DNA of 64,000 nucleotides from Bacteriovoracaceae bacterium (GTDB lineage Bacteria; Bdellovibrionota; Bacteriovoracia; Bacteriovoracales; Bacteriovoracaceae). The notes beneath the pieces were generated by a model. That model was not told where the DNA came from and did not search any database. It was given only the letters and a program-made list of their open reading frames with translations. The position numbers were made by a program, and so were the translations under genes. Position 1 is the stretch's first letter; each line of letters starts with the position of its first letter. Of the stretch, positions 38,348 through 56,650 are shown in pieces. Location: positions 192,001 to 256,000 of the forward strand of contig JBLWTJ010000002.1 in NCBI GenBank assembly GCA_048270185.1, in the 5' to 3' direction.

Positions 38348-38367
38348 CTTAAATACCCTAAATTACA

Positions 38368-38742: not shown

Positions 38743-38753
38743 AATTCCCTCAA

Positions 38754-39503: not shown

Positions 39504-39504
39504 A

Positions 39505-40565: not shown

Positions 40566-40570
40566 GACCT

Positions 40571-42151
40571 CTATTCTTCAATAACAAAAGTTGCAGTACC
40601 GTAATGAGAGTATGCTCTCGTCTCTTTTACTTCTTCAGTACTTTTATAATTAAACTTTCTTAGAAACTCACTTGTTTGTGTTGCACTTCCAAATAATGAA
40701 TTCGAAAGATCAAGCGCCATTGCAGCATACTTACAGTAAACAGATGGACAGTCTTTACTCTTAAGCATATCTGAGCCTACAGACGCCCCGTTTCTTCTTG
40801 CTTCAGGAAGAGTGATTGCAGGGTTAGAACGAACATATCCTGTAGAGATTTCTTCAATAGTCTTAGCAACAAAGTCATTCATTATTTTACTCTTTTCTTC
40901 TTTCGAAAAATTATCTCTTGGGTCTTCTGAGTAGAAATGTACTTCTAAATTACCAGCAATATTTGTCGTCTCTGATATTGAGTTAATTGACTTTGTCTTA
41001 AATAAGCCACCTTTTGTCGTATGCTTCTTTACTTTCTTATAAATCTCACTCTTGTTATAAATAAGTCTGTAGTTATTATTAACAGCAAGGTTATACTTAT
41101 ACATTGAGTTAACATTGAAAACAGCAGTTAAATCTTTGTTAGCTTTTTCACCTTTTAGTAGCATGCAAGATGATAGTGCTGAAATATTAACACTACCACT
41201 TAAAGACTCACCGAAAACAATACTTCTAAATCCTGGCGTAACCTCATTGTCTTGATCCATAATTCCTGGAATACTAATATCTTTTTCAATTTCAGAAACT
41301 AGACCACCGATATCGTTAACAGCAAACTGAATCGAGTTATCAACAGGCATTCTCTGAAGATTAATTCCTCTATTATAACGCTTGAATTCATTAAGAAGTT
41401 CATAATGTTTATTTTCAAGTATAACTTTTACTGTCCCACCATTACGTGATCTCATATCAGCGAGGTCAGCATTCATTTTTTTAAGTAATACTGAAATTAC
41501 ATCAAGAGTATTTGATTCACGTGTCGTTAGTTCTTCAACTTGCATTTTAGTTGCGACTAATTGCTCATTTAAGCTTGTTTCCGCTTCAAAGAGACCTTCA
41601 AGTTTTGCATTAACCTGTGCCATCGAACTTTCAATTTTCACAAGTGTATTTTCTAATTGCATTATATTGTAACGATTTAGATCCTCATTCTTTTTCAAAG
41701 CTACAATTTGAGTTTCAACTAGAACTTTCTTACCCTGAAGATCTATTTTCTTCTCTAGCAACTTAATACGAGACACAGTGTATTTCTGTAGACTTGTATT
41801 CGTACGAACAAGAGTTTGCATTAAAAGCTTTAATTGTCTTTTCTCATAAACAGAAAGCTCTGCACTATCTTGAATTTGATCAATCTCTTTACTGTATTGA
41901 TCTAACAATAAGTAAACACCTTCACACTCTGCTTCCGTTACGAGAGAATTGAATGCATCCACTCTCACAGTATTTGTTTTTGGGGGAAGAACATAGGCAG
42001 TCTTACAAGACTGATCCCAAAAATACCCCGTCGATCCTTTTGGTTCACGTATCTTTTGTGAATCACACTTCGTATACTTATTTGGAATATTGGCCAATAC
42101 TGGAGCAGATATTAAAAATGCTGCCACTGCCATCTTTTTACTAAAATTCAT
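40571..42151 (-). CDS. Secreted hypothetical protein with long coiled coil (paralog of 43187..44617)
   Basis: Signal peptide; DQSCKTAYVLPP; heptad-rich middle; GESLSG; KGGLFKTKS. Confidence 0.8.
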   Translation of the reverse strand: MNFSKKMAVAAFLISAPVLANIPNKYTKCDSQKIREPKGSTGYFWDQSCKTAYVLPPKTNTVRVDAFNSLVTEAECEGVYLLLDQYSKEIDQIQDSAELSVYEKRQLKLLMQTLVRTNTSLQKYTVSRIKLLEKKIDLQGKKVLVETQIVALKKNEDLNRYNIMQLENTLVKIESSMAQVNAKLEGLFEAETSLNEQLVATKMQVEELTTRESNTLDVISVLLKKMNADLADMRSRNGGTVKVILENKHYELLNEFKRYNRGINLQRMPVDNSIQFAVNDIGGLVSEIEKDISIPGIMDQDNEVTPGFRSIVFGESLSGSVNISALSSCMLLKGEKANKDLTAVFNVNSMYKYNLAVNNNYRLIYNKSEIYKKVKKHTTKGGLFKTKSINSISETTNIAGNLEVHFYSEDPRDNFSKEEKSKIMNDFVAKTIEEISTGYVRSNPAITLPEARRNGASVGSDMLKSKDCPSVYCKYAAMALDLSNSLFGSATQTSEFLRKFNYKSTEEVKETRAYSHYGTATFVIEE

Positions 42152-43187
42152 AACTCACCTCTCCTATTTCAACTTTATTTATAATTGTTTTAAATTTGAT
42201 TCCCATTCCAGGAGTAACTTTTTTATCTGAGTACTTTCTAACTACTGATTCGATAAAACTTGGAGTTAAATCATTGAATCCAAATTTTCCATTCTGCTCA
42301 AAAAAGCTCCTATAGAAATCGAGTCTTCCTTTCTCTCCAAAACGATTAAGTATATCTCCTTTGAATAGAGCTCTTTCGCCTTTCATCATTTCAGCAGTTT
42401 TAAAGCCTGCCTCAAACATATTTTTTGGAGATGTTAGTTCATTTAGTTTCTTAAGTTTATTTCCATAAGACTCAACATCTTCAGACTTAATCCAATCTGT
42501 AACAACTGTTTGACTAAAGTGCTTCCCGCTAACATTGAATGCTAACTCAACATCTTTTTCAGCAATGTCACAGGCTAATTCAAAAAGAGAAGTATCAAAT
42601 TGAACTTTTCCTATTTTTAAATCATCAGCAGTTCTTGCATAAAAGTAATCTTCATCAAATCTCTTAAGATATACATTTAAGTAACTCTCAGGAAATAATT
42701 TCAGAATCGCACTATTCTTCACTTCAACATCAAAGAAAGATTCATTAAAACTAACCTGATTATTAATCCTCGAAAGAACAGATTCCGGATTAACGTTTAC
42801 ACTTAAAGCAAGTCTCTTCAAGAACCCGACAGAAGCGAAGCGTTCTCCATATGGATAAATAACCACTTTATTCTTTCCTAGTTCATAAGAGTTTGTTTCT
42901 CCAGAAAGAGTAAAAGGTTCTAAAATCTCACGACGAATTTGTGCAAATTCTTTCGCATCCATTTTAGATACATCTCTAAATCTTAGCTCCTTCTTATAAA
43001 GACCTTTAATTTTTCGACATAACTTCTTTTCTAGTGTAATGCTATCAACTACAATTTTCGATTCATACTCATTAGCAAACTCTAGATTTAAATTATTATT
43101 ATGATCTTTTTTAAATTCATAACCATCGACACTGATCACATTGGCAATTGCCGCTAGGTTCAGAAGAGTTAATAAAAGTGCTCTCAT
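42141..43187 (-). CDS. Secreted hypothetical protein
   Basis: Signal peptide AIA; overlaps both neighbours. Confidence 0.75.
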   Translation of the reverse strand: MRALLLTLLNLAAIANVISVDGYEFKKDHNNNLNLEFANEYESKIVVDSITLEKKLCRKIKGLYKKELRFRDVSKMDAKEFAQIRREILEPFTLSGETNSYELGKNKVVIYPYGERFASVGFLKRLALSVNVNPESVLSRINNQVSFNESFFDVEVKNSAILKLFPESYLNVYLKRFDEDYFYARTADDLKIGKVQFDTSLFELACDIAEKDVELAFNVSGKHFSQTVVTDWIKSEDVESYGNKLKKLNELTSPKNMFEAGFKTAEMMKGERALFKGDILNRFGEKGRLDFYRSFFEQNGKFGFNDLTPSFIESVVRKYSDKKVTPGMGIKFKTIINKVEIGEVSYEF

Positions 43188-44617
43188 TATTTACTCTCCT
43201 TTACAAATCCCATCGTTGTAATTCTAAGAACAGTTTTAATAAGCTCTGATTTCTCATTATATGAGTAAGCAAAATTCTTCGCACTTGTTTGAATTAACTC
43301 CCCTCTACCTTCGACTGCAACTTTCACAGTATAGCTTTGGTCCCAACACTTACGACTTTTTCTAAAAAAACTTCTCTTTGTACGACAAATTCTCTGAGTT
43401 CTCGTTTGCTTAATATGTGGATCATTTGGAATATCAAGATCTTTAATAATAAGCTTACTATCTGTTGGTGTGGCAATTGTTGAGATTAGCTTTAAAACGA
43501 TATCATCTAGAATTAAGCCTTTTAAATCTTGAATCTCTTCGTATAGTTCACCCGACGTTCCTGCTGAATCTTCATCCTGGATCGTAATATCAATTGACTG
43601 ATCTAAATTTGAACTTTCAAAAAGATCAACAACTTCTGAAACCTTAAATGTATTCTTTGTTTTAGTTAGTTTATTTAATTCATTTATTACTTTATCGACT
43701 TTTACTTTTACCGAGTACTTCTTACTCAACTCTACTGGATACCATATTGTTGAGTTAGCAACCAAGTAAGTTGATAAATTTGAATTAAGCGCCTCTCTCT
43801 TAGCGCTATCTAATGTAAACGCTTCACCATTTTTCTTCTTTAGAATATTTACGATAGGACACACACCAGACATATTAAGTTGAATAAATCCTGTTAAACT
43901 CTCTCCCATTGCAAAAGTGTTCTCACTTTCAGCTGCAGCATAACCAATTCTTTCAGAAATATTTTCAAGACTTGAAAGCTTTACTCCTGGTACATTAAAA
44001 GAATGAAGAGCACCTGTACTACTAAGTCCAATTAAGTCATCTTCTGACTTTAGTCTCACACTTAGAGCATTTGCAACAAGAGGCATCTTCTTAATTGTAA
44101 GCCCTCGGCCAGTGTTTGCTTCACGGTATGCATTTACTAGTTCAGTCCACTCGTGTTCAAAGTGTGCCTTACCTTCAAAGATAACCATCTTAGAAAATTG
44201 ATCCTTCTCCATCTTTGCTTGAGGCAAGGCCTTATTTATATAAGTAAGAATATTCATTTCAGAATCAGTTAGAGTTGCAATACGAGATTCTAAATCACGT
44301 TGTGTTTCAACAAGATTCTTCACGCGATTAAGTGATGTCGTATAAGAAGAACATAAGTTACTTTCTGCAAGAATATTATATGAGTCAAAACGAGCAATCC
44401 CATTTCTTGGAGGTAAGACAAATACTGTCTTACATGACTTATCTGTTAAGTAATCAGAAGAGTGAGATGCCACTGCTCCACCTGCACCAGGTTTTACAAT
44501 TGCCAGATTACATTCTTCAGTATTTCCCTCATAAGGAAAGTTTGCAAAACCAAATTGCCCAATAACTAAAGAACTTAGAAGCAGGCCTTTCTTTAAAAAT
44601 TCATAATAAGTATTCAT
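43187..44617 (-). CDS. Secreted hypothetical protein (paralog of 40571..42151)
   Basis: Signal peptide GFA; DKSCKTVFVLPP; GESLTG; GGGAG RBS. Confidence 0.8.
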   Translation of the reverse strand: MNTYYEFLKKGLLLSSLVIGQFGFANFPYEGNTEECNLAIVKPGAGGAVASHSSDYLTDKSCKTVFVLPPRNGIARFDSYNILAESNLCSSYTTSLNRVKNLVETQRDLESRIATLTDSEMNILTYINKALPQAKMEKDQFSKMVIFEGKAHFEHEWTELVNAYREANTGRGLTIKKMPLVANALSVRLKSEDDLIGLSSTGALHSFNVPGVKLSSLENISERIGYAAAESENTFAMGESLTGFIQLNMSGVCPIVNILKKKNGEAFTLDSAKREALNSNLSTYLVANSTIWYPVELSKKYSVKVKVDKVINELNKLTKTKNTFKVSEVVDLFESSNLDQSIDITIQDEDSAGTSGELYEEIQDLKGLILDDIVLKLISTIATPTDSKLIIKDLDIPNDPHIKQTRTQRICRTKRSFFRKSRKCWDQSYTVKVAVEGRGELIQTSAKNFAYSYNEKSELIKTVLRITTMGFVKESK

Positions 44618-44668
44618 ATTTATCTCCCTAGCAATTATTTGCTCTCATTTATTTAGTGACTTGTTAAA

Positions 44669-44685
44669 AGCAGGGAGTGTGCCAA
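44669..44685 (-). promoter_or_regulatory. Sigma-54 (-24/-12) promoter for leftward operon
   Basis: Minus strand TTGGCAC-ACTCC-CTGCT: GG-N10-GC spacing exact, ~50 nt above ATG 44617. Confidence 0.75.
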
Positions 44686-44734
44686 TTTTTTAATTAGTTA
44701 AATGATTGAAACTATGTAAGTTTGAATCTCAAGC

Positions 44735-44786
44735 CAGTCCTTTTCAGACCAAATAAGTCCAAAATAATCTAGTCGACCAAGACTGA
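44735..44786. promoter_or_regulatory. Candidate enhancer (UAS) palindromes between divergent promoters
   Basis: CAGTC-N7-GACC at 44735-44750 and AGTC-N6-GACT at 44772-44785. Confidence 0.45.
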
Positions 44787-44820
44787 TTATGTAATTTTAA
44801 TAGTTTAGAACATTTCTTTC

Positions 44821-44837
44821 TTGGCACTCAGATTGAA
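44821..44837 (+). promoter_or_regulatory. Sigma-54 (-24/-12) promoter variant for rightward operon
   Basis: TTGGCAC-TCAGA-TTGAA: perfect -24, TTGA instead of TTGC at -12; ~40 nt above ATG 44879. Confidence 0.6.
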
Positions 44838-44878
44838 TAGATAAGCTTACTAATTATGATTAATTCGAGGAGAAAGAT

Positions 44879-45757
44879 ATGAAGACTAAATTTATGAGTA
44901 TATTATTGGCCACAAGTTGCCTCTTAGTACTAGGCCAAGTTCATGCTATAACTTTCACAAAAACTGAGGCTAGAAAAGTTTGTAAAGAGATAAGAGATAG
45001 CCAGATCAGTCAGACATCACAGTGTAATTCTGATGTAAATACTAACTACAATATCATTGAAGAACTTACTAAAAGCTACCTTCATGGCCTTGACCTTTTA
45101 GATGAACGACAAAAAGAGGCCCTCCAATACCTAGAGTATAACTCACAGGCCCAAGGTGAATATCTTGAATTATCAAAGTCGAAAATTGAACTAACGGATC
45201 AGTTAAAAGGCCTTGAGGAAAATATTCAATCAACTTTTGAGTACTATAACAAGTTGATTGAAGGTATTTCACCAAACTTCTCTAATCGCTATGCCACAGA
45301 ACTTCTACAACAATATTCAAAAGAGAAGAAAACAAGAGTAAGCCGCCTAGAGAGCGAAAGAGAATCTCTAAGTTCTCGCCTTACTTCAATTAGAGAAAGG
45401 CTTGCACAACTTAATATTGAACTTGCTCCATATCGTGAAATTATCAATCAATACAACTTACAGATAAGTGAAATAAAGTCACAAACTCAGCAAATTCTAA
45501 AAAGACTTGAAGAAAATAAACAAACAAATAGGAGTCATGATACGACAGGATTCATTGGAAGATCCCTATTTGACTTTGGCCATGGAGATGACTTTGATAT
45601 GCAAGCATGTATAAGTTTGCATATGTCTCTTAACAAGTTACCTGAGTTTGATTTACCACGTCTGCCTAATATACCAAGAGGCCCTTGGGGAACAGATGGA
45701 CCTGGCATCAATAACCCTTATGTGAAATCTTTACAAAAAGAATCATATTCTAGGTAG
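44879..45757 (+). CDS. Secreted coiled-coil protein with Pro/Gly-rich tail
   Basis: GAGGAG RBS; signal peptide VHA; long heptad region; Cys at both ends. Confidence 0.75.
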   Translation: MKTKFMSILLATSCLLVLGQVHAITFTKTEARKVCKEIRDSQISQTSQCNSDVNTNYNIIEELTKSYLHGLDLLDERQKEALQYLEYNSQAQGEYLELSKSKIELTDQLKGLEENIQSTFEYYNKLIEGISPNFSNRYATELLQQYSKEKKTRVSRLESERESLSSRLTSIRERLAQLNIELAPYREIINQYNLQISEIKSQTQQILKRLEENKQTNRSHDTTGFIGRSLFDFGHGDDFDMQACISLHMSLNKLPEFDLPRLPNIPRGPWGTDGPGINNPYVKSLQKESYSR

Positions 45758-45836
45758 TTAGAGATGACGTGAGAAAAAAGAAATTCAAACGATTATTAAT
45801 TTATGATAACAATAATTAAAATTTAATGAGGGATAT

Positions 45837-46247
45837 ATGAAAGATAAAACAATTATCGGACTAGCAATTCTAACAGCAACTTTTGGAGCTCATGCGCAAG
45901 ATGCTGATACACAGAATAAAGATGATAAGTCTAAAGACTTAAAACAAATCTATACCCAACAAGAAGACTTAACAGTTGATGAAGAAGTCGAAATTAAAAT
46001 TCTCGAGCACCTTGAAGAGCAAGGTATCTTAATTGAAGACCTTACAATCCAAGAGATTGAAGAACTTCAGATCCTAATGAAGAAAATTGTACTTAGAGAT
46101 CGCTTGCTAATAAATTCAAGTATTCGTTGTATGATAAGCCCAGATGCTGCAAGCACTAATATTAGATGTCTTAGTGCAGAAAGAAAACTCGAAGAGAAAT
46201 TAAAAGAGCAGCTAAATCAAATCAATCAAAGCTTTAACCGCCGCTAA
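45837..46247 (+). CDS. Putative RiPP precursor with Sec signal peptide, acidic leader and two IRC repeats
   Basis: GAGG RBS; AHA signal cleavage; EDLTIQEIEEL; NSSIRCMIS and STNIRCLS; immediately upstream of YcaO. Confidence 0.65.
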   Translation: MKDKTIIGLAILTATFGAHAQDADTQNKDDKSKDLKQIYTQQEDLTVDEEVEIKILEHLEEQGILIEDLTIQEIEELQILMKKIVLRDRLLINSSIRCMISPDAASTNIRCLSAERKLEEKLKEQLNQINQSFNRR

Positions 46248-46256
46248 TTAGTATTA

Positions 46257-47426
46257 ATGAAAATATTAAATCAAAGAGAGTCTCTTGATGGCCTTGTCGA
46301 CAGATTTGCAATCCAAGGCCAGGCTCTTTCTGATGATACAATTCTCAATATAAAAGAATTCCTAAATAACAATACCGATAGACTTACAATTGAAAGAGTT
46401 ATTTCGGATTTAATACCTCACGACTACTATCTGACACGAACATCATGTTACTATCATGGTACACAAATAAATGGTTTTTCACTCTCACATAAAGAAGAGC
46501 CTCACAAATCACTGCTTGAAGCCTATGAGAGGTACTTATTTTTAAACTTAGCTCTACTTGCAGATATTAATAATGAATCAAACAATGCATCTTCATACCT
46601 AAAATTGCTTAATGTTGAATCGATGGATCTCTCAAAGACGAATGTCATCAATTTAAACTCGCTAGAGGAAGTTAGTCTTGAACGCTATTTACTTGGTCTT
46701 CAATCAAATTTCTCATCCTTTACTTCAAATGGATGTGCAGTACATACATCAGTACTAAACTCAACCAAGGCATCGATCTTCGAATTATTAGAAAACCATA
46801 TCATTCAAGAGCATATCATGCTTGATATAGCACCAGTTGAAGTCCATGTAGACGAGCTTATCCCCACTTCAATTTCAGCGAAACTTAATGAGCATGGATT
46901 TGAGATAAAGACCCTTTGCTTTACAAATGGCCAATGGCCTACTTTTTTAACGTTCATTCTTAATAAAGACTTAACAGGTCCCTATCTATTCTACGGCATT
47001 GGCTGCCATGAAGATTTAGATCAAGGTTTACAAAAATCAATTAGAGAAGCTTTCATGTGTTGGTGTATCGAGCTTCCTCAGATTAGCGCATTAGATGAAG
47101 TCGACTTAGGACACGATATCTCTAAGTCATCAAAATTCTATCATTATCAAAATAGTGAAGTCATGCAAAAGGCATGGTTTGGTATGCCTATTAAAAGTAT
47201 TGAAGAGATTAAACTTCAATACCCAACCCAAAAGTTAGCGGCCGTTATTAAAGAAATGGACTTTTTAATTCTGCCAATTCTGGCCCAAGGAGAAAAAGGA
47301 CAAACCATTGTTTTTACAAAGGTTTTTTCTTGTAAAAATCACCCAAAATCCTACTCAACTCCCCCCTATCTACGAATTCATGATACATTAAATAATATTG
47401 ATAAATTAAAAAATTACCCTTTCTAA
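46257..47426 (+). CDS. YcaO-family cyclodehydratase (standalone, divergent)
   Basis: LEAYERY, FTSNGCAVH...SIFELLENH, YGIGCH.....QKSIREA; C-terminal YPF. Confidence 0.8.
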   Translation: MKILNQRESLDGLVDRFAIQGQALSDDTILNIKEFLNNNTDRLTIERVISDLIPHDYYLTRTSCYYHGTQINGFSLSHKEEPHKSLLEAYERYLFLNLALLADINNESNNASSYLKLLNVESMDLSKTNVINLNSLEEVSLERYLLGLQSNFSSFTSNGCAVHTSVLNSTKASIFELLENHIIQEHIMLDIAPVEVHVDELIPTSISAKLNEHGFEIKTLCFTNGQWPTFLTFILNKDLTGPYLFYGIGCHEDLDQGLQKSIREAFMCWCIELPQISALDEVDLGHDISKSSKFYHYQNSEVMQKAWFGMPIKSIEEIKLQYPTQKLAAVIKEMDFLILPILAQGEKGQTIVFTKVFSCKNHPKSYSTPPYLRIHDTLNNIDKLKNYPF

Positions 47427-48272
47427 GTGAGAGATATGAAAGTTGGAAGTATATTAAAGTATAGCAACACAGAGCTATCCTTAGTTGAAAAATTACCTTC
47501 TGGTTTAAATAAGCTAGTATGGTCTAAGGACACTCAGCTACTGATCTTTGACCAAGAAGACAATTATCTTCTACTGAATCCAAGAGAAGTTTCTGGTATG
47601 AGACTTTTTATTGAAGGTCAAAAAACGACACTAATTAAACTATTAAAAGACCAAACTCTTTGCTATCTCATTCAAGGTATTGCTAAAAGCTTCCAATGTC
47701 GATTTATACAAATCCAATCAGAGCAGCTTGATTTAAAAGATCACCTTGATAATGGCTTCTACTTTTCAAATATTATATTAAAAAAAGATTTATCTAAACC
47801 AATCGAAGAAATCAGTTCATCACTAATTGAGAGAAAACTCGATAAAAAATATCAAAATGAGTATGCTTTAAATGAATTTATGACGAGAGTGTCAATTCCA
47901 GGTGGAACACATTACAAGGATGATTTCTACACACTGATTAAGGCAGAGTATAAGGAACTAATCGAACTCGATATCGATGGACTAGACTTTATTGAGTATT
48001 CTTTAAAGGAATATGGCCATGATACATATTATATATGGATGATTAACCACCATACCAAAACTGCTCTACGATGTTTTTCATGGGTGGCACCAAAACTTAG
48101 AGGACAAAGTATATCGAGTCGTGCAAATGAAGAAATCAATAAGAGCTTATATGCTAAAGGCGTTAAGCAATGTCTATCATTTACATCTTTCACAAATATA
48201 GCACAGGTAAGAAGTAGTTTAAAAGCTGGCTACAAGTTAGACCGAATTGTTATTTTAAAAGAGGTTAACTAA
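47427..48272 (+). CDS. GNAT-domain acyltransferase
   Basis: C-terminal WVAPKLRGQSIS (motif A) and NIAQVRSSLKAGY (motif B). Confidence 0.7.
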   Translation: MRDMKVGSILKYSNTELSLVEKLPSGLNKLVWSKDTQLLIFDQEDNYLLLNPREVSGMRLFIEGQKTTLIKLLKDQTLCYLIQGIAKSFQCRFIQIQSEQLDLKDHLDNGFYFSNIILKKDLSKPIEEISSSLIERKLDKKYQNEYALNEFMTRVSIPGGTHYKDDFYTLIKAEYKELIELDIDGLDFIEYSLKEYGHDTYYIWMINHHTKTALRCFSWVAPKLRGQSISSRANEEINKSLYAKGVKQCLSFTSFTNIAQVRSSLKAGYKLDRIVILKEVN

Positions 48273-49660
48273 TGAGTCGTTTAATTCTATCAACTTTACT
48301 CATTCTTATTTCAATTAATACTCTTTCTAAAGATATCTACTTAAAAAGTGATATTAAAATTACCGGATTTGACCCAGCAACCCTAAAGTATGCAGAGGAA
48401 TGGGAGTTATCCCCAACTGTATATGAGACACTAATTAAACCAATTGCCTCAGAAGGTTTCCTTAGGCCTTCTCTTGCTGAAAGTTGGAAATACAAGAGCG
48501 GAACACTAAAGTTCAACCTTAGAAAAGAAACAAGATTTTCTAACGGTGACCCAATCAATGCCAAGGCAGTTAAAGAGTCATTCCTACGTTACTTACTACT
48601 TGATAAGAACAAGGAATCTATTCTTTACAATTGTTTAAAAGAGGCAAAGAATATTAAATCAATCACTGAATCTCATCCTTCTATTACGATTCAATCGGAA
48701 TATAATATTTCTTTTAAAATTAAAGAAGACTGTAAGGATACTTTTCTAAAAGAGATCGCTCAACCGATATACGGTATTGTCTACACAAAGAACTTAAAAA
48801 AGGACCTTTCATTAACTACTCCTTCGATTGTATCAGGAGCTTTTAACTATAAATTAAATAACGATGATCTTATCCTGTATCGTAACAGCAATAACTGGGC
48901 ATGGTTTGAGAATAAATCCAAATTACAAAAGATTATTGTCTCAAAGAATAGAAGTAAGAATACGAATGTTTTAAGAACAGGCTCTATTGAAGTATTCAAT
49001 GAACTGCAAGAGTCAAATCAAGATTTCATTCTTAGTCTTCCAAATATCACTTGGTATCTAACATACGAATGTAAGAACGATTGTGACCTAAAGAAATCAA
49101 TAATAGATGAACTAAAATATAATCTACCAAAAATCATTAAAGAAAAGAGCTATTCAAATGTTTTCAATACACCAGCAGATTCTTTCTTTCCAGCAAGTTT
49201 TAACTGCCCATCAAAAGAGGTTAAAAAGGTTGCTATAAAGAAAAAGGGAATATGTCTTAAACTTGACTACGGATCGAGAAGAACAAATGAAGCTGTCATG
49301 GGATTCACTGATAAAGCATTAAATGATCTCGGTTATAAAACTAATAACTGTGAGAATCCAAAGGTTTTCAAAATATACCCACAATTTCTCCATGATGAGA
49401 TTATACCAACATTAGATTTCTTGGCCAATACAGTCATGTCAATCAACAATATTGTAGAGATCAACAAGTATCTTCCAAATCAAAACAATAAAGTTACCTA
49501 CAATCGAGGAAGGCTATGCACAGAGTTCAGTAAGTTAAACTTTACTCCACTCTATCACTCACGCATTGCTTTTTTCTATTCAGATAAACCACTAAAGAAA
49601 ATATTCTTTAAAAGCGGTGGATATATTAGTTTAATTGATCTGCCATTTGTTGAGTTTTAA
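48272..49660 (+). CDS. Orphan family-5 (OppA/DppA-like) solute-binding protein
   Basis: Signal peptide; DPA, VYETLI, PSLAESW, FNLRK..FSNGDPINAKAVKESF. Confidence 0.8.
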   Translation: MSRLILSTLLILISINTLSKDIYLKSDIKITGFDPATLKYAEEWELSPTVYETLIKPIASEGFLRPSLAESWKYKSGTLKFNLRKETRFSNGDPINAKAVKESFLRYLLLDKNKESILYNCLKEAKNIKSITESHPSITIQSEYNISFKIKEDCKDTFLKEIAQPIYGIVYTKNLKKDLSLTTPSIVSGAFNYKLNNDDLILYRNSNNWAWFENKSKLQKIIVSKNRSKNTNVLRTGSIEVFNELQESNQDFILSLPNITWYLTYECKNDCDLKKSIIDELKYNLPKIIKEKSYSNVFNTPADSFFPASFNCPSKEVKKVAIKKKGICLKLDYGSRRTNEAVMGFTDKALNDLGYKTNNCENPKVFKIYPQFLHDEIIPTLDFLANTVMSINNIVEINKYLPNQNNKVTYNRGRLCTEFSKLNFTPLYHSRIAFFYSDKPLKKIFFKSGGYISLIDLPFVEF

Positions 49661-49661
49661 T

Positions 49662-50684
49662 ATGAAGATTACCGAGAATGATTATTTTTTAGCAAAGAAG
49701 TATAAGAAGCAAGATAGCTTCTATATAAGCCTATCTCGTAAACGCCCTACTTTAGCTGGTGCATTTATTGAAATGCTAGAAGTTCTTTCACAGAACTTAA
49801 TTAATAAAGAGTGTGATTTTCTACTAATCGACAACGACGATCAGATTCTTTTAAAGGATTTACAAAATATTGGATTCAACACTTATGGTTACTTAGCAGA
49901 TGATAAATTAATCTCACTAAGTGACATTAACCTTATTGCACATACAAAAAAGATACAGAATATTGTTCTAGTTGTCGGAAGTAAGATTAAGCATCCTTCA
50001 ATTGAGAACTCAAAAGAGTTTATTTCATTTATTAGAAACAGAGAGCGTTATTTAACAAATCTTACAGAATTAAATCCAAATATTTATAAGGATACAGAGA
50101 ATTTAAAATCTTTTAACCTACAAGATAATGATAAATTAAGAGTTGATAATAGCTTCTCATCTCTATCAATGAAAAGAACCTCGGCAAATGGATTTAACTC
50201 GCCACTAGAAAGTAGTGAAATCATCCAGCTTCTTAACGACAGTCTTTCATATACTCAAAGTAATTCCATAAAAAGACCAATTGCTTGTGCAGGAGGACTT
50301 GGAAATTTCAAGGCCTATATAACAAATGGTGATAATAATGTCGAAATCTACACTCCAGAAGACTTAAACATCAAGCAAACGAATATCGAATGGAATAATC
50401 TTTTAATGGACCAGATAGCAAGTAATCTTGAGACCTTTAATGGATGTAAAACTTGGCTAATTCTAAGTGTGGACCTAGTTCAATTAAGGAGTAAATATGG
50501 AGCAAGAGCTTATCGATTTGCTCTAATGGAAACAGGCGGACTTCTCCATCAACTACATCTATCGGCTACTTCATATGGATTTGACTTTCGTATTCTAGGC
50601 GGTTTTGACGACAAGGTAGTAGAAACTTTACTACACATAGGTAATGAAGAAGTTGTCACAGCAATATGTGGACTAGGAAAGTAA
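49662..50684 (+). CDS. SagB/McbC-type FMN-dependent azoline dehydrogenase (nitroreductase fold)
   Basis: RPIACAGGL; SKYGARAYRFALMETG...LSATSYG...ILGGFDD; ATG 49662 one base after upstream stop. Confidence 0.85.
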   Translation: MKITENDYFLAKKYKKQDSFYISLSRKRPTLAGAFIEMLEVLSQNLINKECDFLLIDNDDQILLKDLQNIGFNTYGYLADDKLISLSDINLIAHTKKIQNIVLVVGSKIKHPSIENSKEFISFIRNRERYLTNLTELNPNIYKDTENLKSFNLQDNDKLRVDNSFSSLSMKRTSANGFNSPLESSEIIQLLNDSLSYTQSNSIKRPIACAGGLGNFKAYITNGDNNVEIYTPEDLNIKQTNIEWNNLLMDQIASNLETFNGCKTWLILSVDLVQLRSKYGARAYRFALMETGGLLHQLHLSATSYGFDFRILGGFDDKVVETLLHIGNEEVVTAICGLGK

Positions 50685-50690
50685 CAACTA

Positions 50691-52799
50691 ATGAAAAGAA
50701 TTGATAAGATCTTCATCATTCTCTTTTGCTTTATTATCGTAGTGTTAGGATTCTACTCAAATTATGCCTATAGCTTAATTCAAGAAGAAGCAAAGCAAGT
50801 TGCCATCAAACAAATGATTGCTAATTCTAATGTTATAACTTCATCTATCCAAAATGATGTATTTTCAAGTAACTATATTAACGCCTGGTACTCAGCATCA
50901 CGTTCAATCAAAAACATAGATGGTGCTTACTTCATTCTAGCGGATATCGACGGTAACGACCTAGTCGATGATTTAGGCTCTCAACTCAAGTATAAGAAGC
51001 TTACAGAAAATAATAAATTTAAAAAAAAGGAAATTAACAAGTCTTCTTATTATTTAGTTTCAAATGACTTTAAAAACCTCATTGTAAAAGATCACTTTAT
51101 TAGTAACCTCGACGGGAAAAGTAATTATTCTATTTCATATGTCTATCCGCTCTCTTTCTTAGAAGCGAGTATATCAAAAATCTCATATATAAATTTAGCT
51201 TTAGCTGCAATATTAATTGGAATCATTGCTCTGTATTTTATAATTATTCGTAAGCTCTTTAATAATAGCTTCACTGCTCTTGGTAATGGAGTTGACCATA
51301 TTATTAAGGGGGAAGAAATCACTAATGCTGAAATCAACGAAGTACTTGAAGATCATTTCGAGGCGCGCACACTCCTTGATAATTTCAAGAAAGATTATGA
51401 TTTAACTAAGAGGAAGTTACAGGAAGAAGCAAAACTATCGGCCCTTTCTAAAATTGCAACACAAGTTGCCCATGATATTCGTTCCCCTCTATCTGTATTA
51501 GAAATGTCTATTTTTGAAGAGGAACAAGTTAGTAATAAGAATATAATCCAAAGTGCGATTCAAAGAATTAATGATATTGCCAATAATTTATTAAGTGAGA
51601 ACAGGACTAATACTAAAGGTCAGGAAGAGATCTATCTTCCATATGTTATTGATTCGATTATTACCGAAAAACGCTACCAATATTCAAAATATCATCAACT
51701 AGAAATTAGATTTGTTAACAATTGTGACAATCTTAACCTGTTTACAAGGTTTAACGATATCGAGCTAAAGCGAATTCTTTCAAACCTTATTAATAACTCG
51801 GTCGAGAGCTTCGCAAACAGACAAGGTATTATTGAAATTATCCTCACTGACTCTCAGAATGATATCTTCTTAGAGATTAAGGACAATGGTCACGGTATTG
51901 AAGAAGACATCCTAGATCAACTACGCAAGAATCCATTTAGTCACAAGAAAGAAGGTGGAAATGGAATAGGCCTTTCTCATGCGATGCAAACAGCTCAGAA
52001 GTATCAAGCCAGTTTAGCACTAGACTCGCAAGTAGGACATGGAACAACAATTCGCCTAACACTTAAGAGAACTTCAGCACCAAGGTGGTTTAGCTCTTCA
52101 ATTAACCTTTCCAAATTTGATAATATAATTGTCTTAGATGACGACTACTCGATTCATGAGCTTTGGAATAAACGTTTATCAGGCCTTAAGAGAGATTATC
52201 ATATTATCAATTTAAATGACCCATTAGAGCTATCAGCAACTCTTTCTAAACTTGATATTAGTAAGACTTTCATTATATGTGATTACGAATTTGTACATGA
52301 GTCGCTAGACGGTATTGATACCATTATTGAAAATGATATCTCTAAGAACTCTATTCTTATTACAAGTCACTTCAATGAAGACGACCTTCAAGAAAGATGT
52401 CTTAAGAACTCAATAAAGATGGCACCTAAAAATTTAGCGAGATTAATTGAGCTACATGAATTTGGTAATATGAGTAAGGGAAAACAGGTCGTCTATCTTG
52501 ATGATGATCGCCTTTTAACTCATGCCTGGAAAACGAAAGCAACTAAGAATGGTGTGGATTTACTCACTTTCAATAATGTGAATGACCTACTTCAATCAGC
52601 AAGTGAGATCGATCAACAGGCGACCTTCTATATTGACTATAGTCTAGGTGAGAATGAATTAAGTGGAGATAAAGTAATTGAGAAGTTACAATCTCTAGGC
52701 TTTACTAAATTTTATTTGGCATCTGGTTACACTAGGGACTACTTTGACGAACTTGGAATTAATATCGAAGTCGTAGGTAAAGAAGCCCCTTGGGTATAA
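50691..52799 (+). CDS. Hybrid sensor histidine kinase with periplasmic domain and two C-terminal receiver-like domains
   Basis: Two TMs; QVAHDIRSPL; NLINNS, DNGHG, GNGIGL; IVLDDD and VYLDDD modules. Confidence 0.9.
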   Translation: MKRIDKIFIILFCFIIVVLGFYSNYAYSLIQEEAKQVAIKQMIANSNVITSSIQNDVFSSNYINAWYSASRSIKNIDGAYFILADIDGNDLVDDLGSQLKYKKLTENNKFKKKEINKSSYYLVSNDFKNLIVKDHFISNLDGKSNYSISYVYPLSFLEASISKISYINLALAAILIGIIALYFIIIRKLFNNSFTALGNGVDHIIKGEEITNAEINEVLEDHFEARTLLDNFKKDYDLTKRKLQEEAKLSALSKIATQVAHDIRSPLSVLEMSIFEEEQVSNKNIIQSAIQRINDIANNLLSENRTNTKGQEEIYLPYVIDSIITEKRYQYSKYHQLEIRFVNNCDNLNLFTRFNDIELKRILSNLINNSVESFANRQGIIEIILTDSQNDIFLEIKDNGHGIEEDILDQLRKNPFSHKKEGGNGIGLSHAMQTAQKYQASLALDSQVGHGTTIRLTLKRTSAPRWFSSSINLSKFDNIIVLDDDYSIHELWNKRLSGLKRDYHIINLNDPLELSATLSKLDISKTFIICDYEFVHESLDGIDTIIENDISKNSILITSHFNEDDLQERCLKNSIKMAPKNLARLIELHEFGNMSKGKQVVYLDDDRLLTHAWKTKATKNGVDLLTFNNVNDLLQSASEIDQQATFYIDYSLGENELSGDKVIEKLQSLGFTKFYLASGYTRDYFDELGINIEVVGKEAPWV

Positions 52800-52801
52800 A
52801 T

Positions 52802-53317
52802 TTACTTCTTAATTAAACTCTTTAATTTATCAGCAACTTTATTTGCATCAAGCATTGGATCAACATCGCGATCTAGTGCTGCAATTTTTAAATTTGGATC
52901 AATGATAAAAGTCCATCTCTTAGAAACGTTAAAGACTGCCATCTTCGCTCCAAACTCTTTTGTTACCTTTCCATCTTCATCTGATAAAAGATCAAAAGTT
53001 AAGGCATGCTCTTTGTGGAACTCGGCCTGATCTTTTACTGAGTCAGTACTAATCCCGTACACTTCTGCACCAAGGTTTCGAATAACTTTAATACTATCGC
53101 GAAATGCACAAGCTTGTTTTGTACATCCAGGAGTTCCGGCTTTTGGATAAAAATAAAGTACTGTCCACTTCCCTTTGCGTGTTTCTATATTAAAATCTAC
53201 ACCTTTGTGATTCTTAACGATAAATCTAGGAACTTCTTGTCCTGTTTCAACATCTTTTGCATATGCATTTACGAGTAAGAGACTCATTGCAACAAAAAAC
53301 CATTTTACCACTTTCAT
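52802..53317 (-). CDS. bcp: Peroxiredoxin BCP/PrxQ, exported
   Basis: YFYPKAGTPGCTKQACAFRD; signal peptide AYA. Confidence 0.9.
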   Translation of the reverse strand: MKVVKWFFVAMSLLLVNAYAKDVETGQEVPRFIVKNHKGVDFNIETRKGKWTVLYFYPKAGTPGCTKQACAFRDSIKVIRNLGAEVYGISTDSVKDQAEFHKEHALTFDLLSDEDGKVTKEFGAKMAVFNVSKRWTFIIDPNLKIAALDRDVDPMLDANKVADKLKSLIKK

Positions 53318-53495
53318 TATTCCTCCAAATCAGTGAAATTTAATCAATCTTATCTCTAGTTCTTATATATACGCAAATATCATCTCATCGGATCATTCTA
53401 AAAATTAAGAATAATGAATTTACATTTAGTTAGGAGCTTCAACTAACTCAACGACTTAAGTTCTCTTAATAAGATGAAACTGCTATAATCAGAAT

Positions 53496-53978
53496 ATGGA
53501 AGAAAGACAAATTAGCTTTAACTCAAAATTTGGAACGATTTATATCTGTGCCAATGTTAATGGAATCTCATACCTAGGATGGGAGGACCAAAATCGACCA
53601 GCTCCAACCCCTAGTTGTGATCTTAGAGTTAAGTCCTATCTTGCTAGTGCTCAAGATGAACTCATTGAATACTTTGCCGGTAGTCGCAAAGAATTCTCTC
53701 TTCCAATCAGTCTTGAGCGCGGAACAGATTTCCAAAAGAAGGTCTGGGCAGAATTATTAAAAATCCCATATGGCCAAGTTTCAAACTACAGTGATATTGC
53801 TCAGAAAGTAGGTTCACCAAAAGCCGTTCAGGCCGTAGGAAGCGCTAATGGGAAGAATCCAATCTGTCTGATTGTTCCTTGTCACCGCGTCATTGCAAAG
53901 TCGGGAGAACTTTCAGGATACGTTGCTGGGGCCAATATCAAAGAGGCCCTTCTCAATCTCGAAGGTGCTCTTATTTAG
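53496..53978 (+). CDS. ogt: Methylated-DNA-protein-cysteine methyltransferase
   Basis: GTDFQKKVW, IPYG, IVPCHRV. Confidence 0.95.
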   Translation: MEERQISFNSKFGTIYICANVNGISYLGWEDQNRPAPTPSCDLRVKSYLASAQDELIEYFAGSRKEFSLPISLERGTDFQKKVWAELLKIPYGQVSNYSDIAQKVGSPKAVQAVGSANGKNPICLIVPCHRVIAKSGELSGYVAGANIKEALLNLEGALI

Positions 53979-54024
53979 TTGCTTTGTATAGACGAAAACG
54001 CAGGGCAATGCTAAATTATTACCC

Positions 54025-55965
54025 ATGAATGATAATAAACAAAACAAGAAAGACATGCGTCCAAAACAGGACATTCCAACAATCCTATCTCGCCTAGAGC
54101 GTCCAAAGAAAGCAGTGATCACAGCAGGTATGCCTTATGCCAATGGCCCAGTTCACATTGGTCACCTGGCAGGAGCTCACGTTCCAGCAGATATCTACTC
54201 TCGTTGGATGAGACTTCTTATTGGAAATGACAATGTTCTCTTTGTTTGTGGAACCGATGACCACGGATCGACAAGTGAAGTTGCGGCCAAGAAACTAGGA
54301 AAGACAACTCAAGAATTTATTGAAGAAGTCCATACGAAACAACATAGTACAATGAAGCGCTATTCAATTGGACTTGATACATATACAGGAACTTCAAGAG
54401 AAGAAAATTTTGAAGCACACAAAGAACTATGCCAAGATTTTCTTAGAAAGATGCATGCAAATGGAATGCTTGATAAGAGAACGAGTCAGCAGTGGTTTGA
54501 TCCAAAGCTATCAATGTTCCTACCTGACCGCTATGTTCAAGGTGATTGCCCAAATCCAGATTGCTCAAATACTAAAGCTTATAGTGATGAGTGCGATGTT
54601 TGTGGTAAGAACTACGATCCAAGTGAATTAAAGAATCCAGTATCGGCCGTAAGTGATGCAACGCCAGAGCTTAAGGACACTGATCACTGGTATCTCAATA
54701 TGTGGAAAGTGACTGACCAATTAATTGAGTGGCTAAATACAAAACAAAAGACTTGGAGAAAGCCGATTCTTCAAGAAGCATTTGGGACAGTTTATCCATG
54801 TGTGACTTTCACAAATAAATCTGAACCTGCGTATAAAGAAATTAAAGAATCTCTTCCAAAACATAAGAGCCGTTACGCTCCGGGTAGAAAGGTTCTCGTT
54901 CAATTTGAAAATCTTGCAGACCTTGCAACTGGAAAGAAAATTCTTGAAGATGCAAAAATTGAATGTGAACTCAATGATGGTTGGGCACACCGTGCGATTA
55001 CTCGTGATGTTTCATGGGGAATCCCTGTTCCAACAGATATTGAGCCAGGGATGGAAGGTAAGACTTTATATGTTTGGCCAGAGTCACTTATCGCTCCAAT
55101 CTCATTTACAAAAGTTGCTCTAAAGAAGAAAGGATTAGACCCGCAAACTTATAAAGAATTTTGGACTGACCCAGAAGCGAAGGTTTTTCAATTCCTTGGT
55201 ACTGATAACGTCTTCTTCTATGTCCTTATGCAGGGATCAATGTGGTTTGGTGTTCAAGAAGACCCTATGAGACAGGCACTTCCAGGTGAGTTCCAACAAA
55301 CAGATGTCTTCTCTAATTTCCACCTACAAATTAATGGTGAAAAGATGAGTAAGTCTAAAGGTAACTTCTATACGGGAGATCAGCTAATTGACGAGATGGG
55401 ATACACAGCAGACCAAGTTCGCTACTTCCTTTCGACTCTAAGCTTATCAGAGAAAGCTTCTAACTTTGACTTTGAAGTTTTCAAGGCCAAGAATGCATTT
55501 CTTGCAGGGCCAATGAACGCTTCATTTGAGAAGCCAATCTCTGCTTGTCACAAGCAATTTGGTGGCGTGGTACCTAAGGGTGAGCTTATTGGAAAGACTG
55601 AAAAAGAAACGTTAAAAATTGTTCAGCAATATACGAAATTCATGGAAAAGGGAGAATACCCAAAAGCACTTGGTGCTCTTGAAAATTACGCTCGTATTAT
55701 TAACGGACTATTCAATACGCACAAGCCTCACGATGACCGCTTTGATGAGAAGGAAAGAACTGATGCTCTTTATTCTTGTTTCTACATTCTAAGAAATATC
55801 TTAGTAATGCTACAACCTTTTGCTCCAGAGACAATGGAGAAACTTCGTGTATCACTAAATCTTCCAGAAAGTGTTTACTCGATTGATGAGCTAACAAAAG
55901 AATTCCCTGAGAATCACAAGATTGGGGAACAAGCAGAATACTTCCCAGCAGTTGATGCTGAGTAA
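54025..55965 (+). CDS. metG: Methionine--tRNA ligase (no C-terminal OB domain)
   Basis: PYANGPVHIGH, zinc knuckle, KMSKS. Confidence 0.95.
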   Translation: MNDNKQNKKDMRPKQDIPTILSRLERPKKAVITAGMPYANGPVHIGHLAGAHVPADIYSRWMRLLIGNDNVLFVCGTDDHGSTSEVAAKKLGKTTQEFIEEVHTKQHSTMKRYSIGLDTYTGTSREENFEAHKELCQDFLRKMHANGMLDKRTSQQWFDPKLSMFLPDRYVQGDCPNPDCSNTKAYSDECDVCGKNYDPSELKNPVSAVSDATPELKDTDHWYLNMWKVTDQLIEWLNTKQKTWRKPILQEAFGTVYPCVTFTNKSEPAYKEIKESLPKHKSRYAPGRKVLVQFENLADLATGKKILEDAKIECELNDGWAHRAITRDVSWGIPVPTDIEPGMEGKTLYVWPESLIAPISFTKVALKKKGLDPQTYKEFWTDPEAKVFQFLGTDNVFFYVLMQGSMWFGVQEDPMRQALPGEFQQTDVFSNFHLQINGEKMSKSKGNFYTGDQLIDEMGYTADQVRYFLSTLSLSEKASNFDFEVFKAKNAFLAGPMNASFEKPISACHKQFGGVVPKGELIGKTEKETLKIVQQYTKFMEKGEYPKALGALENYARIINGLFNTHKPHDDRFDEKERTDALYSCFYILRNILVMLQPFAPETMEKLRVSLNLPESVYSIDELTKEFPENHKIGEQAEYFPAVDAE

Positions 55966-55967
55966 AT

Positions 55968-55997
55968 AAAAAGGCCTCTATTAAAGAGGCCTTTTTT
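55968..55997. terminator. Bidirectional intrinsic terminator
   Basis: AAAAAGGCCTCT-attaa-AGAGGCCTTTTT. Confidence 0.85.
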
Positions 55998-56650
55998 TAT
56001 GATAAATCTTCAAGCTGGCTTTTTATTTTATCTTTTAATTGTTCAAAATTAATATCTTCAATTTCAACAATCATTCCTTCATCAATTTGTCTTGCTTCCA
56101 CATCATCAAGATCACCTTCATCAGCAACACCAATAACTTGCTCGAGTGCAATTGACATATCTCTGTGAACAAAAGGATCTAGCTCATCAAGACCTGCAGC
56201 TAAAGTTGTTCCAAGAGCTGTTCCAGAAGGAGCTCCAAACAGAAACCCACCAACAGCGGCAACACCACCATCAAGACTAACTCCAGTACCAATATAGTAA
56301 GCGGCCGTAGCCTTTGCTCCAATAATTAATCCAAGGTAAGCAGAGACTGCTAAGATTGCAACATCTGCCCCAGCAGCGTATAGAGCATGACGCCCATTCA
56401 TATCGGCCATCTTCTTAATATCACTTCTTGCAAATGTACGATAATCTGAAAAGAGATTACGACATTTAAGTTCGCGACTATTACCAACACACTCTTCAAA
56501 GAGGTAGCGATCGTTTACGATCTCTGTGGCCTTAATATACTTATAAGGTGTCTCTTCAGCTTGAATAAATGTCGAAGCGTGATTAAGTTGGGCAAGGAGA
56601 AGAACTCCCGTAAAAAGAATTTTCTTTAGTTTTGGTGTTAGATTTTTCAT
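55997..56650 (-). CDS. Secreted hypothetical protein with Gly/Ala-rich hydrophobic hairpin
   Basis: Signal peptide NHA; long AGADVAILAV...GTTLAAG segment. Confidence 0.65.
   Translation of the reverse strand: MKNLTPKLKKILFTGVLLLAQLNHASTFIQAEETPYKYIKATEIVNDRYLFEECVGNSRELKCRNLFSDYRTFARSDIKKMADMNGRHALYAAGADVAILAVSAYLGLIIGAKATAAYYIGTGVSLDGGVAAVGGFLFGAPSGTALGTTLAAGLDELDPFVHRDMSIALEQVIGVADEGDLDDVEARQIDEGMIVEIEDINFEQLKDKIKSQLEDLS

Follow-up and report, generated by a model that had tools for sequence, protein, structure and literature searches.

What might a YcaO enzyme do in an operon that also encodes a binding protein and a sensor kinase, and what does it work with there? The question is raised by a 64,000-nt stretch of DNA (the window) from a Bacteriovoracaceae bacterium whose own genome, coded G000, is 95.9% complete. 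Within the window, the interval 46257-50684 holds four plus-strand genes, for a YcaO, a 281-residue GNAT-fold protein, a solute-binding protein (SBP) and a SagB-type oxidase. Work on YcaO proteins has dealt mostly with the production of antibiotics and toxins, and almost always with enzymes that have an E1-like, ocin-ThiF or TfuA helper. A preliminary description of this DNA called the azole machinery minimal, which it is not, since a 462-residue SBP with a signal peptide also lies inside the interval; beyond it, a kinase downstream, a sigma-54 regulator and the setting of the locus in a genomic island had gone unmentioned. Together, the SBP, the kinase, the regulator and the island context shift the likely role of the locus from an antibiotic-like product towards signalling, and the gene set resembles a signalling circuit built on a modified peptide more than it does a classic antibiotic cluster. 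We are confident that the YcaO, for which no known partner is encoded, forms a conserved cassette with the SagB-type oxidase, the GNAT-fold protein, the SBP and the kinase. The whole chain that we propose, in which a Sec-routed, YcaO/SagB-modified and possibly acylated product of the type of the neighbouring secreted protein p136 is sensed by the SBP and the kinase, is a more tentative matter, and we give it slightly less than an even chance.

The cassette stands on its recurrence at a considerable distance. Over 401 genomes of the phylum, a profile of the YcaO gave one strong match beyond its own genome (E 4.4e-50), in G278, a distant genome from another family of the phylum, where the same five genes follow one another in the same order at 22-29% identity, with tblastn E values that range between 7e-10 (YcaO) and 4e-96 (kinase). 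The G278 proteins are a YcaO of 404 residues, a GNAT-like protein of 302 (26% identity, E 6.5e-23), a family-5 SBP of 493 (28%, 9e-41), a SagB-like oxidase of 387 (29%, 9e-41) and a hybrid kinase of 738 (29% over 704 residues, 3.7e-96); 25 nt upstream of the YcaO gene lies one for a 101-residue signal-peptide protein ending in ...SIQPTCL. Such YcaOs are rare. At E<=1e-25 one turns up in a single genome each among the 75 of the G278 family, the 127 of the class of G278 and the 237 of the window's family; 40 relatives, including 12 from the same genus, gave no match to the YcaO, and searches for related loci in genome and metagenome contigs found none. Short YcaOs as such are common in the phylum: at E<=0.001 the profile matches 131 of the 401 phylum genomes, a count that includes weak matches to housekeeping-type proteins of about 730 residues. 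The other YcaO of G000 (C1:1004841-1005836) is of this housekeeping type and unrelated to the cassette: it is a 730-residue OsmC-YcaO fusion (TIGR03549, 1192 bits; also YcaO_for_S12) whose gene adjoins one for a glutathione peroxidase. Downstream of the G278 cassette (L035, 8059-8984) lies a weakly matched RES-domain pair (E 0.0019) that is toxin-antitoxin-like, and the transposase-like open reading frames (ORFs) further on are in keeping with a mobile context.

The YcaO itself (46257-47426, plus strand) looks competent, to judge from its conserved residues. It is a single-domain protein of 389 residues that scores above the cut-off of Pfam PF02624 (39 bits against 25.7, E 7.9e-10, over residues 131-268 only), and its G278 orthologue reaches 77.8 bits. 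Residues E88, E91, R92, G159, E176, E179, P193, G247 and E264 are invariant in our 10-row and 9-row alignments, and the two ExxE motifs and the later glutamate, which we take to be the ATP- and Mg2+-binding residues, line up with those of MJ1094 and McbD. The preliminary description had read the ATP-binding motifs as divergent, citing ELLENH. Those letters are present at residues 176-181, but the divergence was overstated, the conserved glutamates being invariant and only R-D having become N-H; ExxERD has changed to ExxENH in no sequences but the window protein and the three closest to it (ENF in P0005), and the others keep ERD. In the same way, the length of 389 residues is right, and for a stand-alone YcaO it is not unusually short, MJ1094 having 385 residues and McbD 396. 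The C-terminus does read ...KNYPF, as had been noticed, with no full PxP tail; across the clade the C-termini are YPF, HPF or HPY, a cut-down form of the proline-rich tail, and the window YcaO lacks a PxPxP motif.

Searched with the family profile, the PDB returns MJ1094 as the best match (2.4e-14), then McbD (5.8e-8), and also MusD, TruD and LynD. Profile position 4 aligns to residue 20 of MJ1094, so that the protein consists of the YcaO domain alone, without any added N-terminal module. The sequence alone finds little: phmmer against the PDB gave zero chains at E up to 10, and in 5.8 billion proteins a word-indexed search matched it to nothing but itself. Among 1.84 billion representatives, searched exhaustively with HMMER, 13 proteins fall at E<=0.001, 6 at <=1e-10 and 4 at <=1e-30, the query counted. 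The nearest relatives, P0003-P0005, are 36-40% identical, and in a 27-row tree the window protein sits in a 4-row clade (100/99) nested in a 9-row clade (99/98) that includes G278.

With what partner, if any, would this domain work? It had been noticed that no ThiF/E1-like or ocin-ThiF partner is fused or adjacent to the YcaO, and by Pfam or NCBIfam there is indeed none in the cassette. Nor does the further concern raised at that time, a partner encoded elsewhere, find support, the own genome being without matches to TIGR03882, TIGR03603 or, at E up to 0.01, TfuA PF07812. The ThiF-family genes of G000 are two, TcdA and a weak 337-residue homologue on another contig (C3:987-2000; best NCBIfam E 1.6e-12, far under cut-offs), and we rejected the latter as a dedicated partner because G278 and G009 have no orthologue of it. 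Its gene adjoins those of an OmpR-type response regulator and a 240-residue unannotated protein, and its upstream context ends with the contig. A cryptic cytoplasmic E1-like partner among the other island genes was likewise rejected, all seven proteins of the minus-strand operon described below carrying signal peptides. What remains unassigned in the cytoplasm is the N-terminal ~105 residues of the GNAT protein and the N-terminal 125-200 of the oxidase, both too short for a full E1-like domain of the kind seen in TruD 4-315. As to a PqqD-like recognition element (RRE) of the type found with peptides made on the ribosome and modified after translation (RiPPs), no cassette protein belongs to such a family by Pfam or NCBIfam, these two N-terminal parts have no Pfam match at E up to 10, and their predicted models are poor. 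The window YcaO resembles BotC/BotCD and MJ1094 in being single-domain, of similar length and encoded without an E1-like or TfuA partner; it differs from them in its Sec-signal substrate candidates, its SBP and its kinase, and is very distant in sequence. MJ1094 is TfuA-independent. Bottromycin YcaOs are described as functioning partner-free in PMC8442711.

The same evidence bears on a more conventional explanation, a classic antimicrobial cluster for a linear azol(in)e peptide, in which the precursor, the E1-like partner, the protease and the exporter are encoded elsewhere or were overlooked and the SBP and kinase serve immunity or regulation only. A YcaO, a SagB-type oxidase and an acetyltransferase are a goadsporin-like enzyme set, and the weak 337-residue ThiF-like gene on contig C3 could be the partner that such a cluster calls for. 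That gene has no orthologue in G278, despite the same cassette. Further, ORFs down to 20 residues around the operon start include no short Cys/Ser/Thr-rich one, neither protease nor ABC exporter genes are found in the island by Pfam annotation, and SBP and kinase are kept inside the operon in both genomes. The likeness to McbBCD and to thiazole/oxazole-modified microcin (TOMM) systems at large extends to a YcaO and a flavin mononucleotide (FMN) oxidase with a Lys-Tyr pair (McbD 5.8e-8, McbC 7.6e-6); unlike them, the window has no McbB/E1-like C protein, no short Gly/Cys/Ser-rich precursor, no exporter and no immunity genes, and it has an SBP and a kinase embedded in the operon. We regard a classic cluster as very unlikely.

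The best available argument for a lone YcaO acting on a secreted Cys protein comes from sister cassettes that have no cytoplasmic enzyme besides the YcaO, neither GNAT nor SagB. The type example, L033 in the congener G009, consists of a sigma-54 regulator, a 171-residue signal-peptide protein ending in ...SRGGTICF, a family-5 SBP, a YcaO of 321 residues and a kinase. YcaOs of this type occur in 32 of 237 genomes of the window's family, though not in G000. We fetched 20 such loci; several belong to closely related genomes, which makes the counts look more independent than they are. All 20 have the kinase next to the YcaO, 15 have the sigma-54 regulator, and 19 have the SBP, whose gene in 18 cases immediately precedes that of the YcaO. 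For these 18 and L033, 19 loci in all, the ORF directly upstream of the SBP encodes, in every locus but L057 (18 of 19), a protein with a signal peptide and a Cys among the last 10 residues. Ten of these sister precursors have the Cys in penultimate position, typically as G-T-[IV]-C-[FIMV], and they share a block, LNxSIxxxLExRG[IV][IVL], 12-17 residues before it (L033, L039-L058). By analogy, these cassettes speak for a substrate that is a secreted Cys protein and for a YcaO that acts alone: because they pair a YcaO with a precursor-like secreted protein and have neither GNAT nor SagB, the YcaOs of this wider sister group may read their substrate unaided, which weakens the earlier suggestion that leader recognition may lie in one of the N-terminal extensions.

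A counterpart in the window would be p136 (45837-46247, plus strand), which ends 10 nt before the YcaO start and is the leading candidate precursor on its sequence features, though not an established one. Its features are a signal peptide whose cleavage-type site is AHA/Q (..FGAHA/QD), LEEQGIL at residues 59-65 within an acidic helical region, and two cysteines, Cys98 in SIRCMIS and Cys111 in NIRCLS, both within I-R-C-[ML]. Upstream lies the gene for p292 (44879-45757, plus strand), a secreted coiled-coil protein with three Cys past its signal peptide, one of them in QACISL, a context that resembles those of the p136 cysteines; Pfam and NCBIfam assign p292 to no family beyond coiled-coil noise. 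A motif pattern built from the conserved column block of the sister precursors, which fits 14 of 15 of them by construction, picks out 1 of 352 ORFs in the window and the G278 contig, and that one is p136; it fits 35 of 20000 shuffles of mature p136. Precursors of this kind have a precedent in the bufferins. PMC11626156 describes RiPP precursors with Sec signals and indicates that recognition does not have to depend on the signal peptide. As in that account (PMC11626156), the candidate precursors here are of unusual length, have Cys as well as a Sec signal peptide, and come with no dedicated exporters; unlike bufferins, they are associated with a YcaO and a SagB-type oxidase instead of MNIO/DUF2063, have far fewer Cys and show no sequence relation.

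If the YcaO formed a thiazoline, the SagB-type FMN oxidase (49635-50684, plus strand; 349 residues, or 340 if the ATG at 49662 is used) would be suited to the next step. It matches Nitroreductase PF00881 over residues 219-349 (42.4 bits, cut-off 23.5, E 1.1e-10), and a two-row oxidase profile finds in the PDB 3eo7 (2.2e-17), BmdC (4.9e-6) and McbC (7.6e-6), over columns 211-398 only. The catalytic KY pair reported earlier is indeed kept: K287-Y288 is conserved in the G278 orthologue and aligned with the KY of McbC. The N-terminal extension credited to this protein is also real, and its given length of ~150 residues depends on where the domain border is placed, from ~200 residues before the Pfam/TIGR match to ~125-140 if the fold starts ~70 residues earlier, as in McbC. 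This region is conserved between the window and G278 orthologues, and it has no Pfam match at E up to 10, ThcOx, HTH_57 and PqqD included. The cyanobactin oxidase ThcOx, with its N-terminal RRE-like domains, offers a parallel in that an azoline-oxidase-type nitroreductase domain follows a long N-terminal region; the parallel goes no further than a weak Atlas lead (0.76-0.79 to ThcOx-type oxidases, below a meaningful level), the Pfam domains named above being absent.

The oxidase also helps to weigh the idea that the YcaO performs another backbone chemistry, giving a thioamide or an amidine, with the nitroreductase-fold protein in a different redox role. Among solved relatives, the thioamide-forming MJ1094 comes closest by profile, the G278 YcaO also has a match (3.9e-8) to the McrA-glycine thioamidation family TIGR03266, the proline-rich motif at the C-terminus is cut to YPF, and the sister cassettes have no oxidase. 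Set against this, the oxidase lines up with azoline oxidases and shares their KY pair, searches turned up neither TfuA nor a sulfur-transfer gene, and Cys is the conserved residue of the candidate substrates. We consider a chemistry other than azole formation highly improbable.

The gene of the GNAT-fold protein (47427-48272, plus strand) begins at a GTG right after the YcaO stop. The protein has zero Pfam or NCBIfam matches, a word-indexed search of the 5.8 billion proteins found only itself (and an alignment of the window and G278 proteins only those two), and phmmer against the PDB gave chance-level matches to fluorescent proteins only. Nonetheless, its ESM Atlas features score 0.96 to GNAT clusters, the ten best family-bearing matches all belonging to one clan; model residues 106-280 superpose on the C-terminal GNAT domain of MshD with a VIA-align Z of 10.4 (root-mean-square deviation 3.3, 133 residues); the G278 orthologue touches PF00583 (E 0.0096, below cut-off); and hhalign to the GNATs of sibling loci gives 78% probability over the motif-A region. 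Tandem GNATs (MAB_4324, MshD, VipF, the clavulanate tandem GNAT and FemX) lead the Foldseek matches of the whole model, at E down to 1.5e-8 with template modelling (TM) scores of only 0.35-0.41. The earlier picture of a GNAT with a long unassigned N-terminal part is thus borne out, with the GNAT fold at residues ~106-281 and ~105 residues without a family before it; the MRDM start is kept in G278. From the model, and at low confidence, we suggest that this first part is possibly a degenerate GNAT-like half rather than an RRE.

In goadsporin, too, a GNAT-fold protein is encoded beside azole-forming enzymes. GodH is an N-acetylation-type enzyme, and the window protein differs from it in its ~281 residues, its extra N-terminal part and a degenerate motif A. 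A GodH-like acylation of the N-terminus of the core, as first proposed, is unlikely if the substrate is p136, because the mature N-terminus of p136 forms only in the periplasm and the GNAT has no signal peptide.

An acyltransferase beside a YcaO might instead belong to a small-molecule route, in which the GNAT makes an N-acyl-Cys, -Ser or -Thr or a short acyl-peptide, the YcaO cyclodehydrates it, SagB converts it to a 2-substituted azole carboxylate, SBP and kinase read this product as a diffusible signal, and the secreted proteins are unrelated periplasmic components. We examined 13 other short-YcaO loci (L022-L034), namely those of G185 and G009 and 11 of the 12 that ranked best after G278, the one in G304 being omitted because its contig is only ~3.4 kb. 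A histidine kinase adjoins the YcaO in all 13 and an OmpR-type regulator in 12, and a GNAT recognised by Pfam lies beside the YcaO in 8. Oxidants of small-molecule type are also found there, PF14518 heme-oxygenase-like proteins in 3 and B12-radical S-adenosylmethionine (SAM) enzymes in 4, and there is little intergenic space for a precursor gene. These kinase-linked loci may represent a different, possibly small-molecule, signalling chemistry. For the window itself, glycine N-acyltransferase and FemX-type transferases are among the Foldseek matches of the GNAT model, opines and metallophores are further ligands of family-5 SBPs (the matches include NikA, CntA and AgaA), and the oxidase resembles BmdC, which acts on a non-ribosomal thiazoline. 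No YcaO is known to act on a free small molecule; the route leaves unexplained the upstream signal-peptide Cys protein of the window, of G278 and of 18 of 19 sister loci, and the sister cassettes are without any GNAT. We judge it unlikely. The short YcaOs of L022-L034 measure 310-373 residues. The PF14518 protein is encoded directly upstream of the YcaO, a position held in five more loci by an unannotated protein of similar size. In L024 (7535-8219) the OmpR-type regulator is split into a receiver ORF of 147 residues and a DNA-binding ORF of 96, which could be a frameshift or a sequencing error.

On our preferred reading, that of a modified secreted peptide acting as a signal, the product would be recognised by the SBP. 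This family-5 (peptide/nickel) protein of 462 residues (48272-49660, plus strand; SBP_bac_5 E 8.3e-19) has a signal peptide, and Pfam annotation finds no ABC permease or ATPase gene for it in the island. Its profile matches AapF (1.2e-21), MppA, OppA, PrgZ (9.7e-16), NikA and also AgaA in the PDB, and its best NCBIfam matches are Opp5A/NikA (9.6e-14) and CntA (2.1e-8). By sequence comparison it is of the peptide-binding kind, with the pheromone binder PrgZ among its matches. Just downstream lies the gene for a membrane hybrid histidine kinase of 702 residues (50691-52799, plus strand), in which two hydrophobic segments enclose an outer domain of ~137 residues and are followed by HisKA, HATPase and a C-terminal receiver-like region. 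It is 26% identical over 367 residues to the L033 kinase, C-terminal region included, and this unusual region is common to the window, G278 and L033. The pattern of an orphan SBP and a membrane kinase without ABC genes is kept in the sister loci. As gene arrangements go, it recalls LuxP-LuxQ and OppA/PrgZ, in that a permease-less periplasmic SBP is encoded beside a membrane hybrid kinase. LuxP-LuxQ is a binding-protein-dependent sensor kinase system; the SBP here has no sequence relation to LuxP.

The affinities of the SBP could also be taken to point to metal. The modified peptide would then be a bufferin-like, periplasmic metal-binding one, the NikA-like SBP and the kinase would sense the metal-peptide complex, and the island would be a metal-stress module. 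The best NCBIfam matches of the SBP are nickel and metallophore binders, the island sits between catalase-peroxidase and ahpC genes, and there is a precedent in the bufferins, which PMC11626156 presents as Sec-routed, copper-binding peptides with Cys-derived heterocycles. Against this, p136 has two Cys and the G278 protein one, few for a chelator, Pfam and NCBIfam reveal no metal transporter, metal-type regulator or MNIO enzyme, and the best PDB matches of the SBP profile are mostly peptide binders. A metal-binding role is, in our estimation, distinctly unlikely.

What would the kinase control? Across the island from it, on the minus strand (36884-38245), is the gene for an NtrC-type sigma-54-dependent response regulator of 453 residues (Sigma54_activat 7.3e-54, Response_reg 3.5e-13), 43% identical over 205 residues to the regulator of the L033 sister cassette. 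Scanning the 64-kb window for TGGCAC-N5-TTGC with at most one mismatch gave three sigma-54-like sites, of which two lie in the 261-bp intergenic region (44618-44878) between divergent operons, one for each. The site TGGCACTCAGATTGA (44822-44836, plus strand) is 43 nt before the ATG at 44879 and faces the plus-strand operon, seven closely packed ORFs at 44879-52799 that run from p292 to the kinase; TGGCACACTCCCTGC (44670-44684, minus strand) is ~53 nt before the ATG of the 476-residue protein's gene and faces the minus-strand operon. L033 has two perfect sigma-54 sites in the same divergent layout. A scan for sigma-70 promoters and terminators returned nothing useful. The sites are consistent with sigma-54 control and are not proof of it.

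The minus-strand operon (38368-44617) encodes seven proteins of 124, 253, 139, 214, 526, 348 and 476 residues, all with N-terminal signal peptides, and is a candidate output of the circuit. Pfam gives them no real family (only a sub-cut-off MinC_N match of the 139-residue protein, E 0.0016), and NCBIfam, run on the 476-, 348-, 526- and 214-residue proteins, gave two far sub-cut-off coiled-coil-type matches, to the 526-residue protein only; we read these as noise. The 476- and 526-residue proteins are paralogues (E 1e-8). They share the N-terminal motif CxxxxxxxxSCKTxxVLPP, and the 124-residue protein is lipoprotein-like.

All of these genes lie in a strain-specific island of ~16 kb (36685-52822), with a KatG-like peroxidase gene on one side and ahpC on the other. 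Five of 12 same-genus genomes (G009, G011, G004, G002 and G008) have the flanks 36001-36684 and 52823-56000 only 133-643 bp apart on one contig, and the ~16 kb between them are thus an insertion. The GC content is 0.32-0.34 over 38-52 kb and 0.35-0.40 in the flanks, and the island is mobile. The left flank holds the catalase-peroxidase-like gene (34359-36602; Pfam peroxidase 3.1e-67) and the right flank ahpC (52802-53317), two oxidative-stress genes that are direct neighbours in the five congeners.

Putting these elements together, we infer the identity of the substrate, the chemistry, the acylation, the binding by the SBP and the regulatory wiring, and the general course of events would be as follows. 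Consider a cell in which p136 has just been made. In the cytoplasm, the YcaO would use ATP to cyclodehydrate Cys98, Cys111 or both to thiazoline, without an E1-like partner; the SagB-type flavoprotein would oxidise thiazoline to thiazole, and the GNAT-fold protein may acylate a side chain. The product would leave by the Sec pathway, so that no dedicated transporter or leader protease would be needed. In the periplasm, the orphan SBP of the OppA/NikA family would bind the product or a fragment of it and signal through the hybrid kinase to the sigma-54 regulator, which would fire the two divergent sigma-54-like promoters, giving autoinduction of the operon together with expression of the seven secreted proteins.

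At the same time, a number of our own observations weigh against this course of events. The motif pattern was written after p136 had been seen and is thus post hoc, and the 101-residue protein of G278 does not fit it. A hidden Markov model (HMM) of the sister-precursor family ranks p136 seventh of 352 (E 1.2) and gives the G278 protein E 0.022, mostly over the signal peptide; BLASTP of p136 against the G278 protein finds nothing, and p136, the G278 protein and the L033-type precursors share no significant sequence similarity. The cysteines of p136 lie 33 and 46 residues past the motif and are followed by a 25-residue tail, unlike the sister-family Cys, which comes 12-17 residues past it and near the C-terminus. 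The exact cassette type, moreover, is seen with visible context in two genomes only, G000 and G278, and in the 27-row tree the L033-type YcaO falls on a long branch outside the cassette clade, so that its logic transfers by analogy only.

The enzymes and the regulation contribute further points of this kind. The YcaO scores 43.7 bits against TIGR03604, the TOMM SagD family, far below the cut-off of 219.25, and the oxidase 52.8 bits against TIGR03605 SagB over residues 206-345, below the cut-off of 78.4; the predicted oxidase model, at a predicted local distance difference test (pLDDT) score of 35, is unusable. The AlphaFold model of the 281-residue protein, from a 2-row alignment, has a pLDDT of 53.5 overall and 60-87 in the C-terminal part, and GNAT motif A reads RGQSIS against R/Q-x-x-G-x-G/A, a degenerate form that makes coenzyme A binding uncertain. 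The window total of sigma-54-like sites is at the level of chance (3 observed against 2.15 expected), and in the plus-strand site the -12 element reads TTGA, the C of the GC element missing. Finally, a cryptic E1-like fold may escape sequence methods; as presented in PMC8442711, AmiB of the streptamidine pathway has no conserved domain by sequence and is E1-like only by structure prediction.

The enzymes belong to known superfamilies, and it is the architecture and the implied role that are new. Within full-text literature that covers few subscription journals, we found no paper that connects a YcaO with an SBP, a kinase or a GNAT, or with a Sec-signal substrate of this kind. What emerges is a YcaO clade without a detectable helper. 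In every locus examined a kinase goes with it, and in the SBP-type cassettes so does a secreted protein that ends with a Cys. It is possible, and on present evidence still speculative, that these loci belong to an undescribed class of Gram-negative peptide signals, exported by Sec, heterocyclised at a C-terminal Cys by a partner-less YcaO, and read by an OppA-like SBP, a kinase and a sigma-54 regulator. The window island would be a rare, elaborated version of such a system, in which the product is oxidised and acylated as well, with a simpler version in 32 of 237 genomes of the family and kinase-linked short YcaOs in about one third of the sampled phylum. If this is true, the cassette would offer a compact system for learning how a bare YcaO domain recognises its substrate, and YcaOs would become the second enzyme family, after the MNIO enzymes of the bufferins, to modify Sec-routed precursors. 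It would also provide a candidate chemistry for cell-cell or autocrine signalling in a phylum for which the searched literature describes none.

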